From positions 592,213-656,212 of the forward strand of contig OZ246398.1 of the NCBI GenBank assembly GCA_965230995.1: a DNA stretch of 64,000 nt, written 5' to 3'. Positions 24,426 to 56,534 of this stretch are shown here, piece by piece. This DNA is from an uncultured Candidatus Saccharibacteria bacterium (lineage in GTDB: Bacteria > Patescibacteriota > Minisyncoccia > Phycocordibacterales > G965230995). The notes beneath the pieces are model-generated. The model was not told the origin of the DNA. It worked only from the letters and a program-made list of their open reading frames with translations, and made no database searches. The position numbers were made by a program, and so were the translations under genes. The number at the start of each line of letters is the position of its first letter. The first letter of the stretch is position 1.

Positions 24426-24605
24426 TTATATTGCCATTCCAGTAGAAGCTACTGAATCTATACCCTGCGAAGCTATTGATAGCCCCTTTGTGACAATAGT
24501 TAGGAGACTTATGATAATATCCTGCCCTTGTGTAAATACATCTGGAGCAAATGCTCTGATCGCAACTAGCGCGATAATTAGACCGATGACTCGCAAAATA
24601 GGCAT
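24426..24605 (-). CDS. Possible 59-aa two-TM membrane peptide (holin-like).
   Basis: MPILRVIGLIIALVAIRAF...IIISLLTIVTKGLSIA. No clear SD. Competes with the + ORF 24325-24651. Confidence 0.2.
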   Translation of the reverse strand: MPILRVIGLIIALVAIRAFAPDVFTQGQDIIISLLTIVTKGLSIASQGIDSVASTGMAI

Positions 24606-24793
24606 ACTTTTTTGTCGAGGGGTCTTGTTATCGCGTCGACTAAACGCTTAGGGATAAATTCCCATACCCCTCTTCCCTACAAAGAATTATTTCCGTACAC
24701 GGAAGAGGGTCTTGTGCATTTAAATGAACGATTAATACATTATAGCCATCCATTTTTGAATGTCAATAGTTTTATAGCATATATGAGATAATC

Positions 24794-25375
24794 CTAGAAT
24801 CTAATAGGAAATTCCTTGAATTGTGGAAGCAGGTTTTTACCGTAGAGTAGCCTACTAAAAGCTTCTGCTTCGTATAATGCACCCGTTAAAGCGCTTGTGT
24901 GTGGTCTTGGTTCAGCTGGGATACCGACATAAGCCATTATCGAATCACTATCCAGAGCCGAGCGGTTTTTCATTACTGGATATTCTTTGCCTCTATTTGC
25001 AAGGTGCGTGATACAAACAGAATGTAGGTCAATGGTCCTTTTTGCAATTGTATTGTTAATTTTGTATCTCTCACAAGTAGCATTGAGAAAACCCATATCA
25101 AAAGCAGGGTTCTGTCCTGCCAGAGTATGATCTTCGGATTTCATTATGAATTTTAGAAACATAGACACTATTTCTTCGTCTGTAGGTAGGTCTTTGTTTT
25201 CTATATCAGAAAAACCATTGTAATCTAGGGCGTCCTTGTCTACCTTTGCACCCTCAAATAGTCTGCATTTCATATCAAAAGTCCTAGTACAATCAAGGGT
25301 ATCTATTGCCCCAATTGCTAGAATTCCGTGTTGGTATGGGTTTGTACCCGATGTTTCTATATCTACTACTATCAT
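24794..25375 (-). CDS. DEDDh 3'-5' exonuclease (DnaQ/epsilon-like).
   Basis: Exo I VVDIETSG, Exo II, and Exo III HSALTGALYEAEAF motifs. Confidence 0.75.
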   Translation of the reverse strand: MIVVDIETSGTNPYQHGILAIGAIDTLDCTRTFDMKCRLFEGAKVDKDALDYNGFSDIENKDLPTDEEIVSMFLKFIMKSEDHTLAGQNPAFDMGFLNATCERYKINNTIAKRTIDLHSVCITHLANRGKEYPVMKNRSALDSDSIMAYVGIPAEPRPHTSALTGALYEAEAFSRLLYGKNLLPQFKEFPIRF

Positions 25376-35314: not shown

Positions 35315-36385
35315 TCAAATACCCTTTTCTATTCTCTTACAGATATCAGAAATGATATGCGGGCCTTCGTATATCATCCCAGTAATCAATTGCACCAAGT
35401 CTGCGCCGGCATTAATTTTTTCTATCGCATCATCGGCACTCATAATTCCACCACAACCGATAATGGTCATTTTGTTTCCGACTTTTGATCTGGTTTTTTT
35501 AATTAATTTTGTCGACAATTCTCTGCATGGATCACCAGACATTCCACCTCTCGCCTTTCCGCTTGCTTCTTCGGGATGTTTTAGACAAGATATTTCTTTG
35601 TTTAGATTTCCAATCACATATCCTTTTACAAAAGGAAATTTAAGCGACACATCAATTAATTTTGAAAAATCTTCCCATTCGAGATTTATTGGCATTTTCA
35701 AATATACAGGTTTATCTGTTTTAATTTTAGCCAATTGCACAAGGAGCATTTGGAGAGCGTGCGGTGTTGCATATGCTTCGCCACAATATGAATTTGGGCA
35801 AGAAATATTTATGGTGTAATAGTCGCCTATTTTTTCTTTGTTCAGTCTTTCAAAAGAATATACATAATCCTCTACCCCACCCTCGAGAGTTTTACACAAG
35901 ACATCATTCGTTCTTGCTATGCTCACACCAATAACAAAATCCTTCGGTATATGTGATTTTTTAATTCTACGAATTACAGTATCAACTCCATCGTTTCGGA
36001 GACCTTTTCTCACGATAATACTTCCTGATTTTTTGAGCCTAATTAAACGAGGCTTTCTATTCCCTTCACAAGCTCTCGCTGTGACAGAGCCGATTTCTTC
36101 ACCACCAAAACCGAGCGAAGCAAGTATCCCTGTAAGTTTTCCATTGTAATCAAAACCAGCAGAAAGCAGGACTGGCGTTTTGTATTTTATTCCATCAATT
36201 GTTTTTGAAATGTCTTTGCCATGATACCCATACAACAAAGAAATAATTTTTCTACTGATAGAAAAATACCCAAGTAATCTTCCTTTTGCAATGAAAATAT
36301 TATGAACAAATTCCGGATCAAAGATAAACAGAAATGGTTTTAGGATATAGCGGTATAAAAATTTCATATAGGCATTATATATCAA
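35315..36385 (-). CDS. pyrD: Dihydroorotate dehydrogenase (class 2-like).
   Basis: TIM-barrel motifs NISCPNS and IGCGGI, with an N-terminal membrane-association helix. Confidence 0.75.
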   Translation of the reverse strand: MIYNAYMKFLYRYILKPFLFIFDPEFVHNIFIAKGRLLGYFSISRKIISLLYGYHGKDISKTIDGIKYKTPVLLSAGFDYNGKLTGILASLGFGGEEIGSVTARACEGNRKPRLIRLKKSGSIIVRKGLRNDGVDTVIRRIKKSHIPKDFVIGVSIARTNDVLCKTLEGGVEDYVYSFERLNKEKIGDYYTINISCPNSYCGEAYATPHALQMLLVQLAKIKTDKPVYLKMPINLEWEDFSKLIDVSLKFPFVKGYVIGNLNKEISCLKHPEEASGKARGGMSGDPCRELSTKLIKKTRSKVGNKMTIIGCGGIMSADDAIEKINAGADLVQLITGMIYEGPHIISDICKRIEKGI

Positions 36386-52730: not shown

Positions 52731-53225
52731 TCAGATGAGAGCGACCGCGACAATTGCTATAGCCCAAATCCCTACTTGCATAACAATACCAATTCCAGGC
52801 CTGCCATCAAATCTCTTTTTTGAATGAACTAAATTATGGAATTTAATATACCAGCCTAGCCATTTAGCTTTTGTCTTGAAAAATAGAAACTGAAAAAAGT
52901 CAGGTAATATCGCAAACACCGCACCAAGCAAAGCAATATACAGATGATTTCCAACAAGCAAAAACATTATTACCAGAGGAAGAGATAGCCCGAGTAAGCC
53001 ATCAAATGCCACCCTACACATATCAGGATACAAATGATGATTTCTGATAATTTTTGTAAGCAGTGGATCTTTTTGTGATTCTAGAGATTTTAGCTCGTAG
53101 TCCCAGTGAGGAATTGCATCGAGCAAAAAATGACTTGCAAAAGCAAGAACCGCACCGAGCACAGGTGAATTCGGCATAGACAGCGCTATCGAGGCTCCAA
53201 CAATTCCGTGTGTAACTAATATCAT
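52731..53225 (-). CDS. Membrane-bound metal-dependent hydrolase-like protein (DUF457/YdjM-like).
   Basis: His-rich polytopic membrane protein (HFLLDAIPHW). Confidence 0.4.
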   Translation of the reverse strand: MILVTHGIVGASIALSMPNSPVLGAVLAFASHFLLDAIPHWDYELKSLESQKDPLLTKIIRNHHLYPDMCRVAFDGLLGLSLPLVIMFLLVGNHLYIALLGAVFAILPDFFQFLFFKTKAKWLGWYIKFHNLVHSKKRFDGRPGIGIVMQVGIWAIAIVAVALI

Positions 53226-53881
53226 TTTTTTTGTAATGGCAAAATTAAAGCAATATGTTCAAGTGTCATTTTGATTGGCGATGTCGGTTTGCCTATTTCT
53301 CTTGATGCTGTAAGCAAACATCTCGCCAAATCTTCTACCAGTATACCTTTATTTTTAGAAAAAGCATAAATATTTCTCACGTATGTCATCGCTTTTTTTC
53401 TATCTTTGTCTTTGTTAATCTTTTCTGCAATTTTCAAACGTTCTAGAATTGTTCCAAAAATAAAATCATCTGCAATATTTTCTTCGTGATCATCCTTCAA
53501 ATCGATCTCAACAACCCGAGATATAATTGTTGGTAATGCAAAACCTTTGCTTTGTGTTAAAAAGAAAAAATGTGTTCCAAGATCTGGTTCCTCTATTAAT
53601 TTTAAAAGTGCATTTTGAGCTTCGTGAAGTATAGAATTAAATTCTACTAAAAATATTCTTTTTTCAGAAAAAGATTTTCTGGAGCTCGCATATAATATTT
53701 CGTGGGCAACATCAATTGATATATTGTCACAAACATAATTAAAGAAATCTGGATTGTTTTCTTTTTTTACATTACATTTCTCGGATAAATATCTAATGAC
53801 TAATTCTCTAGACATATCCAAATCGCCATAGATTATATAGGCATGGTGTAGATTCTCTGGATTTGGAAAAATATCCGTCAT
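53222..53881 (-). CDS. holB: DNA polymerase III delta'-like clamp-loader subunit.
   Basis: HHAYIIYG and NALLKLIEEP box; no intact P-loop. Start taken at the internal Met to avoid a 100-nt overlap. Confidence 0.55.
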   Translation of the reverse strand: MTDIFPNPENLHHAYIIYGDLDMSRELVIRYLSEKCNVKKENNPDFFNYVCDNISIDVAHEILYASSRKSFSEKRIFLVEFNSILHEAQNALLKLIEEPDLGTHFFFLTQSKGFALPTIISRVVEIDLKDDHEENIADDFIFGTILERLKIAEKINKDKDRKKAMTYVRNIYAFSKNKGILVEDLARCLLTASREIGKPTSPIKMTLEHIALILPLQKK

Positions 53882-54912
53882 CTTTTTGAAATAACGCTTT
53901 TTTTGTATGTATCCAAGTGATCGAGGGCAATACCAGTTCCTCTTGCAACACAATACAGAGGGTCTTTTGCAGTGGCACATTTTACTCCAGTTCGTCTGAA
54001 TACGAGTTCAGGCAAATTTCGAAGCTGGGACGATCCACCGGTCATAATTATTCCTTTATCGATAATATCAGAAGACAATTCTGGAGGAGTTTCTTGCAAG
54101 ACATCTTTTATAGCTTTTATCATTTCCCTTAGTTCTTTTGTAATTGCTTTTACTATTTCGTTGGTTTTAATTTCAACCGATCTTGGTAGACCAGAAATAA
54201 AATCTCTTCCTCTTATCACCATCGACAATTCTTCTTCGAGGGGTATCGCCGAGCCAATAGCAATTTTGATGTCTTCTGCCATTTTATCTCCGATTGCGAG
54301 GTTAAAGGTTTTCTTTATATAGTCAGCAATAGCATGATCCATTTTATTTCCAGCAACCTTTACTGAAGTCGAAGCCACAATTCCTCCAAGAGAAATCACA
54401 GCAACGTCTGTTGTGCCACCCCCTATATCAACGATCATATGGCCCACGGCCTCTTGGATTGGAATACCAGCACCGATTGCTGCGAGAATTGGCTCTTTTA
54501 CTATGTATGCATTTTTTGCACCGGCTTTTATGACAGCTTCAATGACAGCTCTGCGTTCAGTAGAAGTCACACCAGCAGGAACAGACACGAGCACGTCGGG
54601 TCTAAACAAAGTAAATTTTCCGAGAGCCTTGTCGATATAATATCTAAGCATTGCTTCGGTGACCCTATAATCAGCTATCACCCCGTCTTTTAGTGGTCTG
54701 TACGCAATTATATTTTCTGGAGTTCTACCAATCATTTCTTTTGCATCATTTCCGATAGCTAAAATTTTGTTGTCTTCCTCGGAAACAGCAACAACAGAAG
54801 GTTCGTTTAAAACAATCCCCTTTCCTTTTACGTAAACCAAGGTATTTGCAGTACCTAAATCAATCCCAAGTTTTGTTCCGAAAATTCCCATATAGTCCCT
54901 ATAATAGTACAA
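53878..54912 (-). CDS. Second MreB-family actin homolog (Mbl-like paralog).
   Basis: LGIDLGTANTLVYVKG; paralog of 48653-49732. Confidence 0.85.
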   Translation of the reverse strand: MYYYRDYMGIFGTKLGIDLGTANTLVYVKGKGIVLNEPSVVAVSEEDNKILAIGNDAKEMIGRTPENIIAYRPLKDGVIADYRVTEAMLRYYIDKALGKFTLFRPDVLVSVPAGVTSTERRAVIEAVIKAGAKNAYIVKEPILAAIGAGIPIQEAVGHMIVDIGGGTTDVAVISLGGIVASTSVKVAGNKMDHAIADYIKKTFNLAIGDKMAEDIKIAIGSAIPLEEELSMVIRGRDFISGLPRSVEIKTNEIVKAITKELREMIKAIKDVLQETPPELSSDIIDKGIIMTGGSSQLRNLPELVFRRTGVKCATAKDPLYCVARGTGIALDHLDTYKKSVISKR

Positions 54913-55001
54913 AATCAGGAAAGCTCAAATAAGGGGAGTTTTAAATGTTATCCACTTTTAATTTATATCATATATGATATAATGCTTGGAAACATAAAAA
55001 T

Positions 55002-56534
55002 ATGAAAAACGACACAACAAAACAAATCCAGAAGGCTCTCGGCTCTCTTGTTCGTAACATAAGAGAAGAAAAAAATATTACCCAAGCAGATTTTGCAAAG
55101 AAACTTGGCACAACACAGAGCGCCGTTGCACGTATGGAAAATGGCGAACAAAACCTCAGCACTGCAATGCTCGAGAAAATAAGTGAGACTCTAAAAAGAG
55201 ACCTCGTTCACATATCAGACGGTGCCCTAAATATAAAAATCGAGGGCGGACATCCATTGTCTGGTGAAATTACAACCAAAACCTCAAAAAATGGTGCAAT
55301 GGGACTTTTGGCTGCTTCCCTATTAAATAAAGGCACAACCATATTAAAAAACGTTCCAAAAATAGAAGAAGTAAACCGAATGGTAGAAGTCTTCGAAAGT
55401 ATTGGCATTTCAATGAAATGGCGAGGAAATGATTTGGAAATAAATCCACCAGAAAAACTTTCTTTGGAAAAATTGAACAAAGACTCTGCTTCCAAAACAA
55501 GAAGCATAGTTATGTTGATCGGACCATTAATCCACCACCTAAATAATTTCTCTCTTCCAGAACCAGGTGGATGCAAATTAGGTTCGAGAACTGTGAGACC
55601 ACATTTCTATGCCCTTGAAAATCTCGGAGTAGATATTAAAGCCACATCAAATAGCTATGAAATTTCATACAAAAAATTAAAACCAGCAGAAATCATTCTC
55701 TATGAATCTGGTGATACAGTAACAGAAAACGCGATAATTGCTGCCGCTGGTATTCCAGGAAAAACAGTCATCAAATACGCTTCTGCCAACTATATGGGGC
55801 AAGAGGTCTGCCATTTTCTCGAGGAGCTCGGAGTAAAAATCGAAGGAATTGGTACGACAACAATTACAGTCCACGGTCAAAGTGACATAAACAAATCTGT
55901 TACATATTCCCTTTCCGAAGACCCAATTGAATCTATGTTCTTTATTGCAGTAGCAATAGTCACAAATTCAAATATCACAATAAAAAGATGCCCCATTGAT
56001 TTTCTCGAGATTGAACTTCTCAAATTAGAAAAAATGGGATTCAAATACAAGAAATCAAAAAGATACAAAGCAAACAACGGTAAAACAGATTTGGTTGACA
56101 TAGAAACTTTCCCTTCGAAACTAAAAGCTCTCGAAGAAAAAATTCACCCGAATGTCTATCCGGGACTAAATATGGACAACCTTCCGTTCTTTACTGTAAT
56201 AGCCACCCAAGCAAAAGGTATGACTCTGATACACGACTGGGTATATGAAAAAAGAGCAATATATTTCAAGGATCTAGAAAAACTTGGAGCAGACATACTT
56301 CTCGCCGACCAACACAGATTGTTTATAAAAGGACCAACAGAATTAAAACCAGCCGAAGTAATCTGTCCGCCTGCCCTAAGACCAGGTGCCGTAATCCTAA
56401 TAGGAATGCTCGGAGCCAAAGGAACATCAATACTTCGAAACATCTACAGCATAAACAGAGGTTATGAGGATATAGTCGAGAGATTGAACAGTATAGGTGC
56501 AAAAATACGCATATTAAGAGAAATAGAAAGATAG
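55002..56534 (+). CDS. murA: XRE-type HTH domain fused to UDP-GlcNAc 1-carboxyvinyltransferase (MurA).
   Basis: N-terminal ~70 aa HTH_3 (ITQADFAKKLGTTQSAVARMENG). EPT-fold body with GGHPLSGEITTKTSKNGAMGLLAASLL and active-site loop GGCKLGSRTVRPH (Cys conserved). Confidence 0.75.
   Translation: MKNDTTKQIQKALGSLVRNIREEKNITQADFAKKLGTTQSAVARMENGEQNLSTAMLEKISETLKRDLVHISDGALNIKIEGGHPLSGEITTKTSKNGAMGLLAASLLNKGTTILKNVPKIEEVNRMVEVFESIGISMKWRGNDLEINPPEKLSLEKLNKDSASKTRSIVMLIGPLIHHLNNFSLPEPGGCKLGSRTVRPHFYALENLGVDIKATSNSYEISYKKLKPAEIILYESGDTVTENAIIAAAGIPGKTVIKYASANYMGQEVCHFLEELGVKIEGIGTTTITVHGQSDINKSVTYSLSEDPIESMFFIAVAIVTNSNITIKRCPIDFLEIELLKLEKMGFKYKKSKRYKANNGKTDLVDIETFPSKLKALEEKIHPNVYPGLNMDNLPFFTVIATQAKGMTLIHDWVYEKRAIYFKDLEKLGADILLADQHRLFIKGPTELKPAEVICPPALRPGAVILIGMLGAKGTSILRNIYSINRGYEDIVERLNSIGAKIRILREIER

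Follow-up and report, generated by a model that had tools for sequence, protein, structure and literature searches.

A MurA enzyme with an N-terminal helix-turn-helix domain and a conserved palindrome at its promoter: a candidate autorepressor in Patescibacteria

The DNA analysed here (the window) is a stretch of 64,000 nucleotides from an uncultured Candidatus Saccharibacteria bacterium (contig OZ246398.1, positions 592,213 to 656,212). At 55002-56534 it carries a gene which fuses an XRE-type (Cro/C1) helix-turn-helix (HTH) domain to MurA, the enzyme of the committed step of peptidoglycan synthesis and the target of fosfomycin. We consider it likely that HTH-MurA is a competent MurA which represses its own gene through the N-terminal HTH domain. 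The fusion, the conservation of both domains, the catalytic residues, a palindrome overlapping the murA promoter and the co-occurrence of this palindrome with the HTH were all observed by computation. The analysis covered the 64 kb of the window and, at loci from other genomes, flanks of at most 10 kb, and all evidence is comparative and computational. Relatives were surveyed with one genome per species, and at least 598 species-representative genomes, mostly Patescibacteria, encode one. Locus comparisons cover the 80 best loci of these at least 598, namely 74 with the HTH (HTH+) and 6 HTH-less ones. The organism labels of several loci are generic and may be wrong.

Architecture of the HTH-MurA protein

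55002..56534, + strand: HTH-MurA fusion gene, 510 amino acids plus stop codon, with Pfam and NCBIfam domains; AlphaFold2 (AF2) model with a predicted local distance difference test score (pLDDT) of 88.4
55050..55205, + strand: XRE/Cro-C1 helix-turn-helix domain, residues 17-68, HTH_3
55116..55139, + strand: predicted recognition helix, residues 39-46, QSAVARME
55194..55229, + strand: inter-domain linker, residues 65-76
55230..56516, + strand: MurA (enolpyruvyl transferase) domain, residues 77-505
55572..55574, + strand: codon of catalytic Cys191, equivalent to E. coli Cys115 by alignment to E. coli MurA

A reading-frame check of 55002-56534 gave an open reading frame (ORF) of 510 amino acids with an ATG start, free of internal stops and frameshifts. 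Pfam assigned HTH_3 to residues 17-68 (E 6.3e-15; 55.4 bits with the whole protein against a cut-off of 23, and 59.8 bits with the HTH domain alone as query) and EPSP_synthase (PF00275) to residues 81-495 (E 8.4e-48, model positions 2-417 of 417). An earlier sequence-only reading of this DNA had described the gene as a MurA with an in-frame N-terminal Cro/C1-type HTH, and had proposed a Pfam scan for these two families. The scan found both families at significant scores, and the frame is continuous between them. The identical 510-residue protein is recorded on four contigs, the longest of 742,714 bp, and both domains are present in all 120 of the best relatives (66-100% identity, 500-538 amino acids). 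With an unbroken ORF, two significant domains and 120 of 120 best relatives carrying both, the fusion is real and conserved. The same reading had called this architecture non-standard. That holds against the textbook and solved MurAs, as the N-terminal 76 residues with the HTH are covered by none of the solved MurA matches in the PDB. It does not hold within Patescibacteria, where the architecture is widespread (at least 598 species representatives).

The MurA part aligns end to end with solved MurAs (best sequence match 5ujs, E 2.7e-56), and the AlphaFold model superposes on them with template modelling scores of 0.85-0.92 (1uae at a root-mean-square deviation of 2.3 A) in Foldseek. It scores 329.6 bits with the MurA subfamily model PRK09369 of NCBIfam (cut-off 297) and 323.8 bits with the murA equivalog TIGR01072, under the cut-off of 392.7 for that model. 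For comparison with E. coli MurA we used a sequence in which K22, R91, C115 and R120 fall at the expected numbers; identity to it is about 27%. Residues K96, N97, R167, C191, R196, D392, R418 and R486 correspond to E. coli K22, N23, R91, C115, R120, D305, R331 and R397, and all of them are invariant. R460, equivalent to E. coli R371 in the HMMER alignment to solved MurAs, is invariant as well. Cys191 is invariant across 62 relatives and lies inside the catalytic loop GGCKLGSRTVRPH (residues 189-201), which the sequence-only reading had correctly given as intact. An invariant alanine, Ala458 (56373-56375), stands at the place of E. coli Asp369, and an insertion of about 11 residues relative to solved MurAs is found at residues ~352-365 (window ~56055-56096, the RYKANNGKTDLVD region). 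The catalytic module is a divergent member of the MurA family. Because its catalytic and substrate-binding residues match those of E. coli MurA and are invariant, the enzyme looks catalytically competent and of the Cys (fosfomycin-sensitive) type, its activity being judged from these residues.

The HTH domain is modelled by AF2 as four helices (residues 3-23, 28-35, 39-46 and 54-64). Its nearest solved sequences are the DNA-binding XRE proteins HipB, PezA, 434 repressor and C.BclI. Among 75 orthologues, the HTH core has a mean pairwise identity of 0.59, compared with 0.65 in helix 2-turn-helix 3 and 0.63 in MurA. R21, Q39, R44, E46, G48, Q50 and N51 are invariant in the 75 sequences and S40 is found in 74 of them. 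By these values, the constraint on the HTH is comparable to that on the enzyme. The 434 repressor is 37% identical to the HTH over 38 residues, and the invariant or nearly invariant Q28, Q39, S40 and R44 align with its Q17, Q28, Q29 and Q33. These four residues of the 434 repressor make phosphate and base contacts in its DNA complex. A weak match to PRK08154 (BzdR-type, 31.7 bits) was also obtained with NCBIfam. The similarity to antitoxin families (HigA, HipB and PezA-like) is real but under every curated cut-off, and no toxin gene adjoins HTH-murA in the window, where its neighbours are mreB and a gene for a 262-residue protein without a Pfam match. As no toxin gene is adjacent, HTH-MurA is not an antitoxin.

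The linker between the domains is of constant length in the 75 orthologues (16 residues +/-1 over residues 65-80) with a sequence identity of just 0.32, and its residues 70-73 have a pLDDT below 50 in the AF2 model.

A palindrome at the murA promoter

54965..54980, no strand: predicted operator, 16-bp palindrome ATATCATATATGATAT, a conserved motif with symmetric positions 4/13
54975..54983, + strand: extended -10 promoter element TGATATAAT, the right half of the predicted operator

The sequence-only reading had advised looking for a palindrome upstream of the gene, and one is present. In the window it extends to a perfect palindrome of 20 bp, TTATATCATATATGATATAA (54963-54982), 19 nt 5' of the ATG. 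When the loci were scored with the pattern ATAKCAYATATGMTAT, a site with at most 3 mismatches was found in 71 of the 74 HTH+ loci and a site with at most 2 mismatches in 62 of them. Positions 1-3, 5, 9, 11, 12 and 14-16 of the motif are almost invariant. Positions 11-19 of the position matrix read TGnTATAnT, an extended -10 element, and any protein occupying the palindrome would therefore cover the core promoter. The motif is close to confined to this place: in the 722 kb of loci plus window, 65 of the 71 sites with at most 2 mismatches lie at a murA 5' end. Three such sites, one of them perfect, occur in the window, against 0.37 expected by chance. The -10 element ends only 6-10 nt 5' of the start codon in 35 of 62 loci (18 nt in the window). 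This short distance implies that the murA mRNAs would be leaderless or nearly so.

The symmetry of the motif also shows in its variation. Positions 4 and 13 covary: 35 sites have the pair G·C and 20 the pair T·A (P 1.5e-12, phylogeny ignored), and position 13 is the unconstrained "n" base of the extended -10 element. An association of HTH residue 38 (T or S) with the operator type (P 6e-10) was not used, as many positions associate in this way, the window is an exception and the association is confounded by phylogeny.

The HTH-less relatives serve as a control that separates the promoter from the palindrome. All six keep a perfect TGnTATAnT, while their left half-sites have 2-6 mismatches out of 6. 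A full site with at most 2 mismatches is found in none of the six HTH-less loci versus 62 of the 74 HTH+ loci (Fisher P 6e-5).

These results favor a simple scheme of negative autoregulation. Two HTH-MurA molecules would bind the half-sites ATAKCA and TGMTAT, whose centres are 10 bp apart, through their HTH domains. Since the right half-site is also the extended -10 element, occupancy of the operator should exclude RNA polymerase, and transcription of murA would drop as HTH-MurA builds up, giving feedback on the first committed step of peptidoglycan synthesis. In this scheme the DNA binding, its dimeric form and the direction of regulation (repression) are inferred. The sequence-only reading had offered two roles for the fusion. 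The first, a moonlighting enzyme and transcription factor, is favored by a palindrome which is conserved in 71 of 74 HTH+ loci, tracks the HTH and overlaps the promoter. The second, a tethering of MurA to DNA or the nucleoid, is disfavored because the site is specific, single and promoter-overlapping and is not dispersed.

Some loci carry more than one site. In a subclade that includes Doudnabacteria labels (L023, L030, L032, L038 and L062), two operator copies lie upstream of murA, 56-72 bp apart; a double operator of this kind would allow cooperative binding or looping. In the window, an operator copy with one mismatch, ATAGCATATATGAGAT, is located at 24774-24789 (context 24426-24800). It lies on the - strand just upstream of a strong TTGACA-16-TATAAT promoter, which is followed by a hairpin (~24710-24665) and then by an ORF for a hydrophobic protein of 59 amino acids (24426..24605, - strand). 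No Rfam family was found at this site and the 59-residue ORF has no Pfam match. HTH-MurA may have a second target in this copy, or the match may be due to chance. The third site in the window, at 35343, falls within an ORF of 356 amino acids and was set aside as probably due to chance.

A further element is found next to the operator:

54948..54956, + strand: DnaA-box-like sequence TTATCCACT, 8 nt upstream of the operator; uncertain

In 19 of 73 loci, versus 1.8 expected, the 80 nt upstream of the operator contain a sequence that matches TTATCCACA with at most 1 mismatch; these loci include the window, L019, L026, L040, L041 and L048. The majority of the copies share the strand of murA and lie 9-21 nt 5' of the operator, often with a TTGAAN hexamer resembling a -35 element after them. 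This suggests that the DnaA-box-like site is a second conserved input at the murA promoter.

Distribution and origin of the fusion

The sequence-only reading had also asked whether relatives carry the same fusion or separate genes. Among the 80 best loci, 74 have an in-frame HTH, and the other six have an upstream stop and a new ATG at the domain boundary. Where a source is named, the best 120 relatives come from Paceibacterota, Parcubacteria or Patescibacteria, and the 80 best include the labels Paceibacteria, Uhr-, Doudna-, Kerfeld-, Kaiser-, Nomura-, Lipton- and Taylorbacteria and Saccharimonadales. Full-length fusions extend down to 33% identity in a library clustered at 50% identity. In a crude neighbour-joining tree, the six HTH-less relatives fall at no fewer than four places within the fusion clade. 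Their scattered positions indicate that the HTH was lost secondarily and repeatedly.

The fusion is also present outside this radiation. Cluster P0122 (52% identity, 246 members) derives from Nonomuraea, cultured actinomycetes with genomes of 11-13 Mb, and four Nonomuraea species (70-73% GC) encode HTH-MurA (L081 6001-7530; L082-L086). The Nonomuraea protein retains the catalytic Cys and is 55-57% identical to several fusions of Patescibacteria. WP_214634277.1 and WP_139636312.1 are two examples of it. All four species have the same perfect, AT-rich palindrome, ATCTCATATGTGAGAT, 12-14 nt 5' of the conserved N-terminus. Each Nonomuraea locus of 7.5-13.5 kb contains no other match, with 0.03 expected by chance, and the bases flanking the palindrome differ between species. 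It sits inside the 3' end of a co-directional ORF in a background of 70% GC, and departs from the consensus at positions 3 and 14, that is, symmetrically. The gene belongs to a conserved three-gene cassette with variable flanks, in which a formyltransferase/enoyl-CoA-hydratase fusion is followed by HTH-MurA and a tyrosine recombinase (phage-type integrase). These partners were not found beside murA in Patescibacteria, and mreB was absent near HTH-murA in the Nonomuraea loci examined. In the crude neighbour-joining tree, the Nonomuraea protein nests among Patescibacteria sequences. Together these sequence relationships point to an old horizontal transfer between Patescibacteria and Actinomycetota, in which the Nonomuraea gene is likely an extra copy of MurA.

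We also searched in the reverse direction, from the palindrome to the genes beside it, with the first 120 metagenome contigs picked solely by the exact 16-mer ATAGCATATATGCTAT. An ORF matching the profile of the MurA HTH is encoded by 38 of the 120 contigs, six HTH-murA contigs included, and about 24 of these 38 ORFs start within 36 nt of the motif. The matches other than the fusions are small XRE proteins with the signature of the MurA HTH, TQ..LA...GT.QS.I[AS]R[LI]E.G. Small XRE proteins with the same signature thus adjoin the same palindrome, and on this sequence evidence the MurA HTH belongs to an XRE subfamily which has this palindrome as its operator type. In about 13 of the 38 contigs, the HTH gene is the second gene after one of the Gp49/HigB family (PF05973, E 1e-20 to 1e-27). 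Modules of Gp49/HigB and XRE genes with ATAGCATATATGCTAT at the promoter are found on L140, L199, L146, L182, L093 and L153, and the closest stand-alone relatives of the MurA HTH, on L140 and L199, belong to this group (up to 56% identity). The HTH and its operator were probably acquired together, from a small autoregulatory XRE protein like those used as antitoxins in Gp49/HigB-type modules.

Another group of contigs from this search (L089, L090, L094, L102, L106, L117 and about 30 more; samples Ga0056131, Ga0056132, Ga0209681 and Ga0209788) carries an interspersed repeat with the core ...AGCGCGCT-ATAGCATATATGCTAT-CGCGCGCTAAAAA... and no HTH gene adjacent to it.

Competing readings and comparison with known systems

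Several points weigh against autorepression by HTH-MurA. The right half-site is the promoter itself, which leaves the left half and the symmetry as the only independent evidence. MurA is as a rule a monomer, and the modelled HTH has four helices with no obvious dimerisation element, which would leave a dimer on the palindrome unexplained. Three HTH+ loci have no recognisable site and nine have one with 3 mismatches, and the statistics on T38/S38 and on positions 4/13 ignore phylogeny. The palindrome is also not limited to murA. HTH-murA was found on just 6 of the 120 contigs of the reverse search, and the idea that the 16-mer is specific to murA everywhere was dropped on this count. Among the 82 contigs without a profile-matching ORF, about 35-40 represent the one interspersed repeat from few samples, about 7 adjoin an XRE gene with a different recognition helix, and the remainder are singletons.

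A more novel reading makes HTH-MurA a metabolite-gated trigger enzyme. The large closing movement of MurA on UDP-N-acetylglucosamine (UDP-GlcNAc) and phosphoenolpyruvate (PEP), or its feedback ligand UDP-N-acetylmuramic acid (UDP-MurNAc), which binds tightly and with PEP gives a dormant state, would change how the HTH domains pair on the operator, and the precursor pool would set murA transcription. We regard this as possible but rather unlikely. A modulation of DNA binding by ligand state (UDP-GlcNAc, PEP or UDP-MurNAc) is speculative, and the linker, with its short, fixed length and low model confidence, neither favors nor excludes a coupling of ligand to DNA binding. Such a protein may have further targets, for example the near-operator at 24774, and the DnaA-box-like site may add a cell-cycle input.

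It is improbable, in our judgment, that the palindrome is mere promoter architecture, either two -10 boxes placed back to back or a promoter type typical of the lineage, with an HTH that serves in dimerisation, in nonspecific tethering or in nothing. What speaks for it is that the right half is a consensus extended -10 element, that these genomes are AT-rich, that the 16-mer is also found without an HTH gene, as in the interspersed repeat, and that mreB diverges from the same intergenic region in many loci. The mreB gene of the window is as follows.

53878..54891, - strand: mreB, divergent neighbour (MreB_Mbl, E 1.8e-136); probably outside the regulated unit

However, mreB has a -10 box of its own, 7-12 nt 5' of the mreB ATG, and in most loci the palindrome is found 34-80 nt upstream of that box. 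For the window, a promoter of mreB is predicted at 54928-54901. In the mirrored -10 hexamer, the counterpart of the final T is unconserved, and just 24 of 71 sites have A at position -2. At least 16 loci in which the upstream ORF is co-directional retain the palindrome, and Nonomuraea has it even within the 3' end of such an ORF. HTH-less relatives retain the -10 element and the divergent mreB but lose the left half, and within the 722 kb the motif is almost exclusive to murA. The palindrome as two divergent promoters was rejected on the grounds of the separate mreB -10 box, the co-directional loci, Nonomuraea and the loss of the left half alone.

Two side observations concern mreB. Both mreB and murA typically have a -10 box just 6-12 nt from the start codon, which implies leaderless transcripts. 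In the window, an ORF resembling the DNA polymerase III delta' subunit spans 53222-53980 (- strand) when counted from the first ATG. In this form it shares about 100 nt with the 3' end of mreB, and translation probably begins at an internal Met near MTDIFPNPENL.

The nearness of mreB raises another alternative, in which the HTH would bind MreB instead of DNA and tether MurA to the MreB cytoskeleton, as a RodZ-like adaptor. The HTH of RodZ is indeed an XRE-type module able to bind protein, and mreB, which diverges from murA in the window, is linked with it in 52 of the 80 loci (39 immediately divergent, 7 further upstream and 6 downstream). This linkage, however, does not follow the HTH. The divergent mreB is still present in HTH-less loci, 22 HTH+ loci lack an mreB gene within 4 kb, and the Nonomuraea locus has none nearby. 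The domain scores only 13.9 bits with HTH_25 (cut-off 24.6) versus 59.8 with HTH_3, and RodZ is missing among its solved-structure matches. Conservation is strongest on helix 2-turn-helix 3, at the DNA-contact positions of 434, and not on helix 4. An adaptor would also leave unexplained the palindrome and its loss along with the HTH. We therefore rejected an MreB tether, as very improbable, on family scores, conservation pattern and HTH-independent synteny.

Finally, an artefact, whether a small XRE regulator gene and murA merged by a sequencing error or an internal Met start that leaves the HTH outside MurA, might be suspected from the small XRE genes that often precede other genes and from the frequent Met at position 56, but it has a negligible chance of being right and was excluded: the window and 74 independent loci from different studies all have an unbroken frame, the linker has a fixed length, no start codon is found near the MurA N-terminus (residues 69-77), position 56 is a hydrophobic core position with M, T or I and not a conserved start, and the HTH-less relatives show a stop and a new ATG precisely at the domain boundary.

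In model bacteria the level of MurA is kept under tight control by proteolysis and signalling proteins which Patescibacteria are not known to possess. If autorepression by HTH-MurA is true, an enzyme equipped with a repressor domain and an operator of its own would solve this task compactly, at the level of transcription. HTH-MurA would then be the first enzyme-repressor of the Mur pathway, and a rare concrete regulatory circuit with an operator of known sequence for a huge, mostly uncultured radiation. Gating by metabolites, if true, would make it a one-protein homeostat of the cell wall for the regulator-poor Patescibacteria. The proposal is directly testable, since cultured Nonomuraea have the fusion and the operator, and both are small and defined. 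Databases already list such proteins as MurA or "helix-turn-helix domain-containing protein". No paper describing the fusion, its operator or where it occurs, or any Mur-pathway enzyme with an enzyme-repressor design, came up in a full-text search of the literature.

Each part of HTH-MurA has known counterparts. The catalytic part shares the EPT (enolpyruvyl transferase) fold, a full-length match and the Cys-type active-site loop with the canonical MurAs of E. coli, E. cloacae and other solved cases. It differs from them in 76 extra N-terminal residues, the insertion of about 11 residues, Ala458 in place of Asp369 and a score under the murA equivalog cut-off. The known control of canonical MurA, in Firmicutes, is post-translational, through ClpCP/ReoM; HTH-MurA instead has a fused DNA-binding domain. 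On the side of the HTH, phage 434 repressor and Cro belong to the same HTH_3 family, with the 37% identity to 434 repressor extending across its DNA-contact residues. The small XRE regulators, among them HigA-type antitoxins of PF05973 modules, share with HTH-MurA the HTH_3 family, the signature and the palindrome ATAGCATATATGCTAT at the promoter. They are enzyme-free proteins of 73-170 amino acids, many of them paired with a toxin, whereas here no toxin gene is present and the HTH is N-terminal to an enzyme of 430 amino acids. HTH-MurA would also be an example of gene fusion that puts an antitoxin-like autoregulator, together with its operator, to a new use.

RodZ likewise places an XRE-like HTH in a protein of the cell wall and cell shape, and it too is linked to mreB. 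Its domain is HTH_25, followed by a transmembrane helix and a periplasmic DUF4115, which HTH-MurA lacks, the remainder being MurA; HTH-MurA is also conserved on the DNA-contact face and its mreB linkage is independent of the HTH. BzdR (PRK08154) has the same arrangement of an XRE HTH N-terminal to an enzyme-derived domain. In BzdR this shikimate-kinase-like domain is a ligand sensor and not a pathway enzyme, whereas the protein described here is named MurA and keeps all its catalytic residues.

A close parallel is with the trigger enzymes BirA, PutA and NadR, which likewise combine an enzyme and a DNA-binding domain in one polypeptide. What marks an enzyme-repressor, namely an enzyme, a DNA-binding domain and an operator in the relevant promoter, is found here at the level of sequence. 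As in BirA, a dimer is predicted on a palindromic operator overlapping the promoter, through which the abundance or state of the enzyme would feed back on transcription. The control of DNA binding by ligand, which defines BirA and PutA, is for HTH-MurA speculative. The DNA-binding folds differ, with a winged HTH in BirA, a ribbon-helix-helix in PutA and an XRE/Cro-C1 HTH here. In HTH-MurA the enzyme is one of peptidoglycan synthesis, and its predicted target is its own promoter.

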